This document shows positions 2,067-45,348 of a DNA stretch of 64,000 nt, in pieces; the first letter of the stretch is position 1, and the number at the start of each line of letters is the position of its first letter. The notes beneath the pieces are model-generated. The model did no database searches and was not told where the DNA came from. It saw only the letters and a list, made by a program, of their open reading frames with translations. Source of the stretch: Escherichia coli (GTDB lineage: Bacteria; Pseudomonadota; Gammaproteobacteria; Enterobacterales; Enterobacteriaceae). The DNA lies in the NCBI RefSeq assembly GCF_050920415.1, contig NZ_CP169309.1. One strand, written 5' to 3'. The position numbers were made by a program, and so were the translations under genes.

Positions 2067-2515
2067 TGAATCAGTCGCTTACCCTTGCCTTTTTGATTGC
2101 CGCAGGGATTGGTCTGGTCGTCCAGAACACGCTAATGGTGCGCATCACCCAGACCTCCTCTACCATTCTCATCGCCATGTTGCTGAACTCACTGGTAGGG
2201 ATTGTGCTCTTTGTTTCTATTTTATGGTTTAAACAAGGCATGGCGGGGTTTGGCGAACTGGTGTCCAGCGTACGCTGGTGGACACTTATACCCGGCTTGC
2301 TGGGATCTTTTTTTGTCTTCGCCAGTATCAGCGGATATCAGAATTTGGGAGCGGCGACAACTATTGCAGTACTGGTCGCCAGCCAACTGATTGGTGGTCT
2401 GGTGCTGGATATCTTCCGCAGTCATGGCGTACCACTACGGGCGTTGATCGGCCCAATTTGTGGCGCAATTTTACTTGTGGTTGGTGCCTGGCTGGTGGCC
2501 AGGCGCACATTTTAA
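2066..2515 (+). CDS. ydcZ: Inner-membrane protein YdcZ (DMT-like, 149 aa)
   Basis: ORF 2066..2515, ATG start, hydrophobic multi-TM sequence MNQSLTLAFLIAAGIGLVVQ...; coupled to mnaT. Confidence 0.9.
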   Translation: MNQSLTLAFLIAAGIGLVVQNTLMVRITQTSSTILIAMLLNSLVGIVLFVSILWFKQGMAGFGELVSSVRWWTLIPGLLGSFFVFASISGYQNLGAATTIAVLVASQLIGGLVLDIFRSHGVPLRALIGPICGAILLVVGAWLVARRTF

Positions 2516-2749
2516 TCAGAGGATGGTGCCGCCTTTGGTTAACTGTTCGTGGCGCGCTTCCATATCTTCTTTATGCTTGCGACCGTGATGGGCGATCGCT
2601 GTGCGCAGACGCTGCTGCTGGGTGTAGCGATCTTCCCGACTTAACTCCGCGTCATCGCTCAGGGCGATTAATAATTCGTTCATATGGGCAATGACGCTCT
2701 CTTCAATCGCGGCATCCACGCGCGCGATGACTTCATCCAGATGCGACAT
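2516..2749 (-). CDS. ydcY: Small protein YdcY (DUF2526), 77 aa
   Basis: ORF 2516..2791 (-); YdcY sequence begins at internal Met MSHLDEVIARVDAAIEES... Confidence 0.85.
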   Translation of the reverse strand: MSHLDEVIARVDAAIEESVIAHMNELLIALSDDAELSREDRYTQQQRLRTAIAHHGRKHKEDMEARHEQLTKGGTIL

Positions 2750-2834
2750 ACTTTCTCCTAAGCCACTTGTGAAATTTATCGATTCATCCAAATGATATAA
2801 GTCTGCGTGGTGCCGTCAAGCCAGTGCGTAAGAT

Positions 2835-3008
2835 TTAAAACAGTGAAAACAACAGCGCCACCGGGAAACTCATCGGCCATGTTGCCCCCACCAGAAAGGC
2901 GCTTAAGAAACGGATGCGTTTCTTATCGTGAGAAAGAAACCAGGTGATAAGAAATGCGATTGCTGCCATAACCGCATAAAAAACAAGCATGTGTTGATAG
3001 AGAGACAT
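2835..3008 (-). CDS. ortT: Orphan membrane toxin OrtT (YdcX), GhoT-like, 57 aa
   Basis: ORF 2835..3083 (-); internal Met MSLYQHMLVFYAVMAAIAFLITWFLSHDKKRIRFLSAFLVGATWPMSFPVALLFSLF matches OrtT. Confidence 0.85.
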   Translation of the reverse strand: MSLYQHMLVFYAVMAAIAFLITWFLSHDKKRIRFLSAFLVGATWPMSFPVALLFSLF

Positions 3009-3202
3009 GTACGGGCGTCCAGCCAGATGAATAAAACGCGCGCAAATATGCGTCATTTTTTGACGTGCATCAAGTTTTTTCACCAGTTTGAGAAAAAATC
3101 ATCAAACAGCAACTTGCCCTTATCCATCTTCAGAATGAGTATTATTGCGGATTTTCTTAACCCGTACTATACACATAGGGGCAATGATAAAAGGTGGCAA
3201 AA

Positions 3203-3298
3203 ATGAATGTTTCCAGTAGAACTGTAGTACTGATAAATGTCTTTGCTGCTGTTGGTTTGTTTACTCTTATCTCTATGAGATTTGGCTGGTTTATTTGA
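3203..3298 (+). CDS. yncL: Small membrane protein YncL (31 aa)
   Basis: Hand-translated ATG at 3203: MNVSSRTVVLINVFAAVGLFTLISMRFGWFI, stop TGA 3296-3298; below the ORF-track length cutoff; matches remembered YncL. Confidence 0.75.
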   Translation: MNVSSRTVVLINVFAAVGLFTLISMRFGWFI

Positions 3299-3697
3299 TG
3301 TAGTGATTTTGCACGCAGCACGTACTGTCAGAGAAATCACTGCTCTGACAGTACGCAAGATCATCTCATACTCTCCAGGTTTACAACATTATCCTTAATA
3401 TTTACTTCTTTTTGCTGACATCTACATTGAAATAAGTAGAAAACATCCCCCTCCTATCGTCCTTACAGACAGCTTACTGATTCAAAGGGAACTTTGTTTT
3501 CACATTTTTCTATCATCATTACTTTAGACGCGCGGGGTCTATAAATGCTTTGTACTTTCAGGGAATAAAGTAAATATAAAAAGATGGCATAAAGTTTATG
3601 CATGGCAGGATGTTTGCAACCTCCTTGAGGACGCTGTCCCATTGAAATTGCAAACCCCGCACTGGTTATCTGCCCATTTATCATGTAAAACAGACAA

Positions 3698-4507
3698 TTA
3701 TAGGTCTCTGAATATCTCAGAAAGATTGAATTTTTTATAGTCCCTCTCTTGGATATTTCCATTTGATATCAATCGATTCATCTCTTCAACAAAATAATTT
3801 ATATCATCACATTTGTTATTATCCGGAAGATCTGAATAATTATAATTCCACCACTTTATTCTCAACAATTCATCAATAATATTTGAATCAAATCTAAATC
3901 TGATTATTTTTGCAGGAACTCCTGCAACTATGGCATATGGTGGCACATCTTTGGTAACAACGGAATTGGCAGCAATAACAGCACCATCACCTATTGCGAT
4001 GCCACCTTTCAATACAACATCATTTCCTATCCAGACATCGTTTCCTATAATCGGATTTTCAGGTTTGGTAATGAATGGTTTCAATGTCCATGGCCGTTCG
4101 AACTCACTCAAGGCAAATTTATCAAATTCACCGTTATAAGTCATCATGTGAGTAGTAAAACGATTCATAGGATGATTTCCACCCATTATTTTTACATTTG
4201 ATGCAATACTACAAAATCGTCCTATATGTATATTCCCTGAAAAATGACAAGTTGGAAATGAAAATGCACCTACACTGGAAAAATTTTTTACAGGCATTGT
4301 TGAATATTCTTCAGCAATAACATTCTCTTCAATTGATATTTTGTCACCTTTTGAGAAAAGAAATAAATTCCTTTCTTTGTAAGACTTCTTCCCTTTATGA
4401 TTTAAAAATATTTTATTATCCATGCAAAATTCAAAGTGTTTTTTCGTCCACCTAAAGGTAATGGTTTTATTTTTATCTTCCGTGAATTTATATAACTGTA
4501 CGTTCAT
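3698..4507 (-). CDS. Hexapeptide-repeat (left-handed beta-helix) O-acetyltransferase, xenobiotic acetyltransferase (XAT/CatB/Vat)-like, with N- and C-terminal extensions; start codon uncertain
   Basis: ORF 3698..4507 (-), 269 aa; core ...NHPMNRFTTH...GNDVWIGNDVVLKGGIAIGDGAVIAANSVVTKDVPPYAIVAGVPAKIIRFRF is a typical XAT hexapeptide signature; strongly AT-rich unlike flanking genes; not recalled at this site in K-12. Confidence 0.8.
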   Translation of the reverse strand: MNVQLYKFTEDKNKTITFRWTKKHFEFCMDNKIFLNHKGKKSYKERNLFLFSKGDKISIEENVIAEEYSTMPVKNFSSVGAFSFPTCHFSGNIHIGRFCSIASNVKIMGGNHPMNRFTTHMMTYNGEFDKFALSEFERPWTLKPFITKPENPIIGNDVWIGNDVVLKGGIAIGDGAVIAANSVVTKDVPPYAIVAGVPAKIIRFRFDSNIIDELLRIKWWNYNYSDLPDNNKCDDINYFVEEMNRLISNGNIQERDYKKFNLSEIFRDL

Positions 4508-4740
4508 ACTAAAGACATCTACTTTTACTTATAAATTATTAGTTGAATAACGATACTCTAAAGTCTTCTATGAATCAACCATGACAGGATGAAAAATCAC
4601 CATCATACCTTTAGCGCATAATAGTCGTCTAACTTTTCCACTCGTTTTAATGTATTCATTCTTATTAATCGCCAATGACTCAAAACTTCAAACGATAGTG
4701 GCCATCATATAATTTCATATAACAGCCACTAACATTTAAC

Positions 4741-6165
4741 TTAATGTTTAACCATGACATGGCGGACGACGGTGTAATCCTCCAGCCCATAAAGTGACAT
4801 ATCCTTGCCGTAACCAGAAAGTTTCTGTCCACCGTGCGGCATTTCACTTACCAGCATAAAATGGGTATTGACCCAGGTACAACCATATTGCAGCCGTGCG
4901 CTGACACGATGCGCCCTGCCCACATCTTTAGTCCATACCGAAGATGCAAGTCCGTACTGGCTGTCATTCGCCCAGTTCACCACCTGTTCTTCATTGTCAA
5001 AGGCCGTCACGCTCACCACCGGACCAAATACCTCTTTTTGCACGATGGCATCGTCCTGTAACGCGCCAGCCAGCAGCGTAGGCGCATAGTAATAACCATT
5101 ACCCTTGCGCTTTTCACCACCGGTGATCACTTTGATGTGCCCTGTCTCTTTCGCCTCTTCTACCGCCTTGCTGACACGTTCGAGATGTGCCAGCGAACTT
5201 AACGGTCCAAGCTCCGTGGACTCGTCATCCGGCGCACCAGATTTTAACGTTGCCACTGCAGCACCGAGTTTTTCCACCAGCGTATCGTAAATACCTTTTT
5301 GCGCGTAGATCCGACAAGCCGCAGTACAATCCTGTCCGGCATTGTAATAGCCAAAAGTGCGAACACCTTCGACCACTGCTTCAATATCAGCATCATCAAA
5401 AACAATCACTGGCGCTTTGCCACCAAGTTCCATATGAGTACGCTTAATAGACGGCGCTGTATGGCTGATGATGTGCTCGCCGGTGGCGATAGAGCCCGTC
5501 AGCGACACCATCCGCACTTTGGGATGTCCGGTCAGCGGATCGCCCACTGTTTTGCCTCTGCCAAACAGCACATTAATCACGCCAGCCGGGAAGATATCTT
5601 TCGCCAGTTCAGCCAGCTTCAACGCTGTCAGCGGCGTAATTTCTGATGGTTTAAGCACTACGCAGTTCCCTGCCGCCAGCGCCGGAGCCAGTTTCCACGC
5701 GGCCATCATCAGCGGATAATTCCACGGTGCGATAGAAGCCACGACCCCCAACGGATCCCGACGGATCATTGAAGTATGACCTTCAAGGTATTCGCCGGCC
5801 GCCAGACCATTGAGGCAGCGCGCCGCCCCGGCGAAAAAGCGAAAGACATCGACAATCGCCGGAATTTCATCATTGAACGCACTATGCAGCGGTTTGCCAC
5901 AATTACGGGACTCCAATTCGGCAAAAACCTGACCATTTTCTTCAATAACATCGGCCAGTTTCAGCAGGCATTCCGCACGCGCTTTCGGCGTGGTTTGCCC
6001 CCATTCGGCAAATGCTGCATCTGCCGCGCGAACAGCAGCATCCACCTGCTCTGCGGATGCCTCGGCAATCTCCAGTAAAACGTCCCCCGTTGCCGGATTA
6101 TAGACAGGCTGTTTTTCCCCTTCGCCGCTAACCAGTTCTCCGTTAATCAGTAACTTATGTTGCAT
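4741..6165 (-). CDS. patD: Gamma-aminobutyraldehyde dehydrogenase PatD (YdcW), 474 aa
   Basis: ORF 4741..6165 (-), [29 protein letters not shown]..., aldehyde dehydrogenase family. Confidence 0.95.
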
Positions 6166-12233: not shown

Positions 12234-12464
12234 ATGTTTACGAAGGCGTTATCGGTTGTCTTATTAACGTGTGCGCTGTTCTCAGGACAACTCATGGCAG
12301 GGCACAAAGGACATGAATTTATGTGGGTAAAGAATGTGGATCATCAGCTGCGTCATGAAGCGGACAGCGATGAATTGCGTGCTGTGGCGGAAGAGTCGGC
12401 GGAAGGTTTGCGCGAGCATTTTTACTGGCAAAAATCGCGCAAACCAGAAGCGGGACAACGTTGA
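12234..12464 (+). CDS. yncJ: Small protein YncJ (DUF2554), 76 aa, signal peptide
   Basis: ORF 12234..12464 (+), ATG start, MFTKALSVVLLTCALFSGQLMAGHKGHEF... Confidence 0.85.
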   Translation: MFTKALSVVLLTCALFSGQLMAGHKGHEFMWVKNVDHQLRHEADSDELRAVAEESAEGLREHFYWQKSRKPEAGQR

Positions 12465-38174: not shown

Positions 38175-38227
38175 CCGGACACTATTTTGATGTGGACTGT
38201 AGATATTCAGTCCACATCTCAATCCAC

Positions 38228-45285: not shown

Positions 45286-45348
45286 ATGCACTCCATGCCA
45301 TTAAAAAAGAAACAAAAGGGAAATGCATCTTTCCCTTTTGTATATTCG

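Follow-up and report, generated by a model that had tools for sequence, protein, structure and literature searches.

A covarying, U-less stem-loop probably protects the 3' end of the Rho-terminated yncL mRNA in Escherichia coli

The window analyzed here, a 64-kb stretch of Escherichia coli DNA, contains the ydcZ-ydcY-ortT-yncL region. We placed yncL with the RefSeq annotation of an identical record, L002, in which the gene occupies positions 854-949 of the locus, corresponding to 3203-3298 of the window. A palindrome lies downstream of yncL, followed by a variable islet and by patD. The features of the locus are as follows.

3167-3173, + strand: putative sigma-S-type -10 element of the yncL promoter, CTATACA, predicted from sequence only
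3203-3298, + strand: yncL coding sequence, 31 aa, a small stress-response membrane protein (open reading frame and RefSeq annotation)
3321-3333, + strand: 5' arm of the hairpin, CGTACTGTCAGAG, whose pairing is kept with compensatory changes
3334-3342, + strand: hairpin loop, AAATCACTG, 9 nt, varying in sequence within E. coli
3343-3355, + strand: 3' arm of the hairpin, CTCTGACAGTACG
3356-3455, + strand: C-rich, G-poor tract (26 C and 8 G in 100 nt), a candidate Rho-utilization region
3358, + strand: inferred steady-state yncL 3' end, ...GUACGCAA-3', transferred from K-12 position 1517039(-)
3396-3406, no strand: left copy of an 11-bp direct repeat, CTTAATATTTA, at the islet junction and outside the hairpin element
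3407-4739, no strand: variable islet with a CatB-related O-acetyltransferase gene, absent from K-12 and most E. coli
3698-4507, - strand: the CatB-related O-acetyltransferase gene, inside the islet
4740-4750, no strand: right copy of the 11-bp direct repeat, CTTAATGTTTA, overlapping the patD stop codon
4741-6165, - strand: patD, downstream of the islet

Published data connect yncL with sigma-S. An RpoS holoenzyme SELEX peak falls in the spacer between yncL and ydcX (PMC5493296), and the Salmonella yncL ortholog lies inside the sigma-S-dependent sRNA STnc1110 (PMC5437024). Counted from the putative -10 element, with the start site predicted accordingly, the yncL transcript would be ~180 nt long. 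When this predicted transcript was folded, the terminal hairpin was the only helix that survived in the centroid structure. The hairpin starts 23 nt past the yncL stop codon and belongs to the yncL 3' UTR.

The original prediction described the palindrome as a perfect 13-bp stem with a 9-nt loop, and the window sequence bears this out: the arms at 3321-3333 and 3343-3355 are 100% complementary and flank a 9-nt spacer. This is the longest perfect hairpin-type inverted repeat within the 64-kb window. By chance, as simulated with a first-order Markov model of the window, 64 kb should contain ~0.02 repeats with arms of 13 bp or longer and a 3-20 nt spacer; any such repeat was present in 2 of 100 simulations. 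G-C pairs make up 7 of the 13 pairs of the stem, and the hairpin alone has a folding energy of -20.5 kcal/mol on the + strand and -20.2 kcal/mol on the - strand. Beyond the stem, the + strand continues with CAAGATCATCTC and the - strand with TGCTGCGTGCAAAATC; read directly, the sequence contains no T-run after the stem on either strand, and no A-tract precedes the stem in the window. The palindrome was also not called by a consensus terminator scan, and the earlier judgment that it is not a classical intrinsic terminator holds. The switch in base composition that had been placed at the palindrome was not found, as yncL and its flanks already have a GC content of 36-41%. An Rfam scan of 2500-5000 with E-values up to 10 returned no match at the hairpin or at yncL. 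A sigma-70 consensus scan picked out a weak promoter-like match at 3345-3372 on the + strand (CTGACA, 16 nt, CATACT) that runs across the 3' arm; it is probably a chance match, the number of matches in the region being no higher than in shuffled sequence. Elsewhere in the window, other perfect hairpin-type repeats of 11-12 bp lie at 45312-45341, 38189-38218, and 50870-50903. The one at 45312-45341 (ACAAAAGGGAAA...TTTCCCTTTTGT) has outer stem ends that are A-rich on one side and T-rich on the other and, judged by its sequence, resembles a two-way intrinsic terminator.

The region was matched in 5,415 of 5,426 complete E. coli genomes, and the islet is present in only 1,151 of them. A 53-bp segment around the palindrome is present in 5,411 of the 5,426. 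Each record returned two places for it, which are most simply explained by the palindrome matching both strands of one locus; on this reading the palindrome would be single-copy, with one locus per genome. In the window, a search for further copies of the 13-mer found none beyond chance-level matches with 2 mismatches. K-12, which is islet-free, has identical arms and a single different base in the loop, and the window sequence downstream of the hairpin diverges from K-12 after position 3375. In K-12 and other islet-free genomes, the hairpin occupies a 97-bp gap between the convergent genes yncL and patD. The palindrome thus belongs to the E. coli core genome as one of its ordinary features and does not form the edge of the neighboring islet.

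The islet itself was inserted at the patD stop codon and left the hairpin element untouched. The 51 bp between the palindrome and the junction are core sequence, common to islet-free Escherichia. The 11-bp direct repeat that brackets the islet is imperfect, and its right copy spans the stop codon and last codons of patD; it resembles a target-site duplication or a microhomology junction. We saw no terminal inverted repeats and no mobility gene at the islet. Because the hairpin is intact, yncL expression should match in strains with and without the islet. With 3150-4800 of the window, which is mostly islet, as the query, identity to the best place was at least 99% in only 4 records, while the other ~1,150 islet-bearing genomes matched at 91-93% and the matched yncL and patD flanks of islet-free genomes were ~96-97% identical. 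Measured with this query against E. coli genomes, the islet alleles are unusually divergent. Among the E. coli genomes that were read, the loop haplotype AACT was found only in islet-bearing ones (P15-385, E29, SJ7, and 2013C-4361). In the region ~150-400 bp after the hairpin, Escherichia sp. MOD1-EC7003 retains ~150 bp that are similar to the islet's left end. Its sequence then continues into a stretch with the inverted repeat GGTTTGCGCGA...TCGCGCAAACC, which also occurs at 12405-12445 of the window. A search for patD within 3 kb in this strain found no copy, which suggests a larger deletion or replacement that removed patD and the ydcSTUV operon.

We examined the conservation of the hairpin in 80 Enterobacteriaceae loci anchored on ydcY. 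Among these loci, yncL, ortT, and patD adjoin ydcY only in Escherichia, so that a single genus supplies all of the covariation described below. The neighbor of ydcY in Salmonella enterica subsp. arizonae is an unrelated 441-aa open reading frame (1453-2778 of the fetched locus). Since the Salmonella ydcY neighborhood lacks yncL, the yncL of STnc1110 must lie elsewhere or be too divergent for a 31-aa query. Our alignment comprised 12 distinct sequences, drawn from six further Escherichia species or clades and from rare E. coli variants. Stem pairing is kept across all 12, with 97.4% of cells able to pair, and 4 of the 13 pairs have changed on both sides (G-C to A-U, U-A to C-G, and U-A to A-U). 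The stem base, for example, reads CGCAC.../...GTGCG, CACAC.../...GTGTG, or CATAC.../...GTATG, and the stem arms of E. albertii are ATCCACAGTCAG/CTGACTGTGGAT. The observed covariation score was reached by none of 500 shuffles. In a control in which the partner was slid by 1-3 columns, pairing fell to 22-55%. RNAalifold recovered the same 13-bp helix. The hairpin structure is thus real and has been maintained in evolution. Most of the covariation lies in the three basal pairs; the apical nine are almost invariant and hence uninformative.

The variation has further features. The loop has three sequence haplotypes within E. coli and a length of 9 or 11 nt depending on the species. With the AACT haplotype the stem grows to 14 bp and the loop is 7 nt. 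E. whittamii and Escherichia sp. E1V33 have two extra apical pairs (columns 39-40 with 48-49) and a 7-nt loop; the extended stem is perfect at 15 bp in E. whittamii and has one A.C at the second basal pair in E1V33. Given these apical extensions, the effective loop is often 7 nt rather than 9-11 nt. In three sequences (E1V33, SJ7, and E. albertii), an A.C mismatch on the yncL strand corresponds to G.U on the opposite strand, and the E. coli variant E29 has the reverse pattern, with U.G on the yncL strand. The three A.C cases are a weak hint that the complementary RNA may also matter. A larger structure on the + strand, with an outer 10-bp helix formed by GUGAUUUUGC/GCAAGAUCAU, was considered and rejected: 82% of its cells pair, compensatory change is essentially nil (one cell in one pair), and the mapped 3' end described below cuts off most of its 3' strand.

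Transcript data for this locus come from the map of RNA 3' ends in MG1655 by Adams et al. 2021 (PMC7815308). A 3' end at 1517039(-), on the sense strand of yncL, appears in their Supplementary file 1 for all three growth conditions (PMC7815308), with 75,265 reads in LB at OD 0.4 and 536,300 in LB at OD 2.0 (PMC7815308). The 61-nt string listed for this end is the hairpin sequence, and its 3' nucleotide is position 51 of the string, as calibrated by the sgrS and dapD rows. The K-12 RNA accordingly ends ...CUCUGACAGUACGCAA, 3 nt past the stem, and 1517039(-) corresponds to 3358(+) of the window. The published table labels this end "antisense patD" (PMC7815308), and yncL was apparently absent from the annotation behind the label. 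We conclude that this strong end is really the primary 3' end of yncL, and we credit the published Term-seq peak to this small-protein gene instead of counting it as patD antisense. The end is already in the published table, under the wrong gene, and was never discussed. From OD 0.4 to OD 2.0 the Term-seq signal increases seven-fold, which fits with the RpoS SELEX peak in the yncL promoter region.

Supplementary file 2 of the same study places a Rho termination region on this strand, with its peak at 1516753(-) (PMC7815308), 286 nt downstream of the 3' end. It has a Rho score of 16.6 (p = 5e-21; PMC7815308), a coarse measure computed in 800-nt windows in K-12 only that does not resolve the exact Rho site. 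Downstream coverage was 9 reads without bicyclomycin and 72 with it (PMC7815308). In K-12, yncL RNA has a precise 3' end, and transcription is terminated downstream of it in a bicyclomycin-sensitive manner. Some polymerases may stop at the hairpin itself, which is compatible with the coarse Rho score. The ratio of C to G after the stem is 25:17 in K-12 versus 26:8 in the window, and the GC skew is -0.23 over 3300-3499. In ExcludonFinder, patD and yncL are a convergent pair with overlapping transcripts, which fits read-through beyond the hairpin. All of these transcript data are from K-12, which is islet-free, and are applied to the islet-bearing strain by inference.

Based on these results, we think it likely that the hairpin is a protective 3' stem-loop of the yncL mRNA, which polymerase passes on its way to termination by Rho, to which exonucleases trim the RNA back, and which stabilizes the message. 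In this model, a sigma-S promoter would drive a ~180-nt yncL transcript in which the palindrome is transcribed and folds as a 13-bp stem-loop at the 3' end. RNA polymerase would run past the hairpin, which lacks the U-tract that could stop it, and would enter C-rich untranslated sequence that is antisense to patD in K-12 and islet sequence in the window. Rho would then end transcription in this C-rich sequence beyond the hairpin. The resulting tail would be trimmed by 3'-to-5' exonucleases (PNPase and RNase II) until the stem base halts them, and what remains would be a stable yncL RNA ending ~3 nt past the stem. Exonuclease trimming, rather than direct release at the hairpin, would thus make the yncL end; the hairpin would prolong the life of the mRNA; and the same events would be expected in the islet-bearing strain.

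Four other explanations were weighed against this model, two of which had been offered in the original prediction together with an RNA stability element. The least credible of these, with next to no chance of being correct in our estimate, is that the palindrome serves the acetyltransferase islet as its insertion boundary or attachment site. Its proximity to the islet, 51 bp, is the one point in its favor. An islet terminus should occur only with the insert and at the junction, and this palindrome does neither: it is present in 5,411 genomes against 1,151 with the islet, its arms are identical in K-12 and ~4,260 other islet-free genomes, and the junction, at 3407, lies 51 bp beyond it, marked instead by the 11-bp direct repeat at the patD stop codon. 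The palindrome therefore does not sit at the islet edge as first proposed. Its occurrence in islet-free strains, together with the absence of other copies in the window or the genomes, means that it is not an islet boundary, and this is the very combination that the original prediction had named as speaking against such a role. A DNA-level operator, in which the palindrome would be the site of a dimeric transcription factor, is very unlikely. The dyad symmetry is perfect, the 9 inner base pairs of both arms hardly vary among Escherichia, and TACTGT/ACAGTA resemble LexA half-sites. In a LexA box, however, the CTGT and ACAG half-sites are 8 nt apart, and here they are separated by 19 nt, a spacing on which we rejected a LexA box. 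Neither a fixed half-site nor a fixed spacing is seen: the arms are 9 nt apart in some species and 11 nt in others, a shift of 2 nt, and substitutions in one arm are matched by complementary ones in the other, as in the change from CTGT to CAGT in E. albertii, which keeps the pairing and not the half-site. The site is also downstream of both neighboring genes, away from a promoter. Of the readings first offered, the RNA stability element is the one that gains support, from the covariation of the stem, the Term-seq end in K-12, and the Rho-dependent read-through downstream.

The remaining two explanations also place the function in RNA. A non-canonical intrinsic terminator, in which the U-less hairpin itself releases polymerase and the mapped end is the site of termination, would account for a very stable stem and for a precise 3' end only 3 nt from it. 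We consider this unlikely, as a U-tract is wholly absent (CAAGAUCAUC), the consensus scan is silent, and the ends of intrinsic terminators in the same table (sgrS and dapD) fall inside U-runs. Moreover, the eight-fold increase in downstream coverage with bicyclomycin indicates that many polymerases pass the hairpin. Alternatively, the hairpin could be a two-way element that, on the opposite strand, also ends or protects the RNAs of patD, or of patD and the acetyltransferase gene, and insulates the convergent units. On that strand the hairpin lies 40 nt past the patD stop codon in the K-12-like arrangement and 340 nt past the acetyltransferase stop codon here. We regard this as possible, if somewhat doubtful, and it would add to the protective function on the yncL strand rather than replace it. 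The - strand hairpin is equally stable (-20.2 kcal/mol), in islet-free genomes only 97 bp, with the hairpin inside, separate the convergent genes yncL and patD, and no other terminator-like site was found on the - strand from 3698 to 3355. Where a change on one side disrupts the yncL-strand pairing (E1V33, SJ7, and E. albertii), the - strand would have G.U; E29, however, shows the opposite pattern, with U.G on the yncL strand, and the sample of intermediates is tiny. The K-12 Term-seq tables list no 3' end on the patD strand near the hairpin, although patD may be poorly expressed in the media used.

Within the interpretation that we favor, a protective stem-loop at the yncL 3' end, a more speculative role can be proposed for the apical half of the hairpin. 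The apical nine pairs are almost invariant while the basal pairs covary, and in length and abundance the transcript resembles an sRNA. For these reasons the apical half could conceivably dock a partner in a sequence-specific way, be it an RNA chaperone (ProQ or Hfq, for example) or RprA and KilS, the sRNAs that RIL-seq links to yncL, or else be the core of a two-strand element that insulates yncL and patD; we rate this idea as improbable. If a two-strand excludon core were correct, its function would be altered in the 21% of strains in which the islet shifts patD by 1.3 kb.

How does the yncL hairpin compare with known systems? Like canonical intrinsic terminators, it is a stable hairpin at an RNA 3' end and, in K-12, lies between convergent genes. 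Unlike them, it has no U-tract on either strand, and the RNA ends 3 nt from the stem and not in a U-rich tract after the hairpin. It is similar to REP elements acting as mRNA 3' stabilizers in being an extragenic palindrome that would block 3' exonucleases. Unlike REP elements, which have many dispersed copies with a shared consensus, the yncL palindrome appears to be single-copy (one locus per genome, as deduced from two-strand matching) and matches no Rfam family. To our knowledge, it bears no resemblance to the REP consensus. Salmonella STnc1110 (PMC5437024) has the same gene product and is likewise a short, abundant, sigma-S-linked transcript, with the difference that, in the 80 loci, Escherichia alone has ortT-yncL-patD as neighbors of ydcY.

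Finally, Dar and Sorek 2018 described Rho-dependent transcripts that end precisely just past stable stem-loops without U-tracts (PMC6061677). These transcripts have a bias of C over G downstream, and PNPase and RNase II shorten their long tails as far as the stem (PMC6061677). The yncL hairpin shares the hallmarks of these protective stem-loops (PMC6061677). A stable stem-loop (-20.5 kcal/mol) lies immediately 5' of the RNA 3' end, which is precise in K-12; no U-rich tract follows the stem and no A-tract precedes it; downstream transcription is Rho-dependent, with bicyclomycin-sensitive read-through, as scored in K-12 in 800-nt windows; and C exceeds G downstream in a rut-like manner (26:8 in the window and 25:17 in K-12). 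The yncL case differs from the class in its 13-bp stem, whose length and perfection are unusual, and in its host transcript, a very short mRNA resembling a "coding sRNA"; the exonuclease step is proposed by analogy. The hairpin is an ordinary member of a well-described class, of little importance beyond good annotation, and adds a clean case, backed by covariation, of a protective hairpin that lacks a U-tract on a transcript terminated by Rho.
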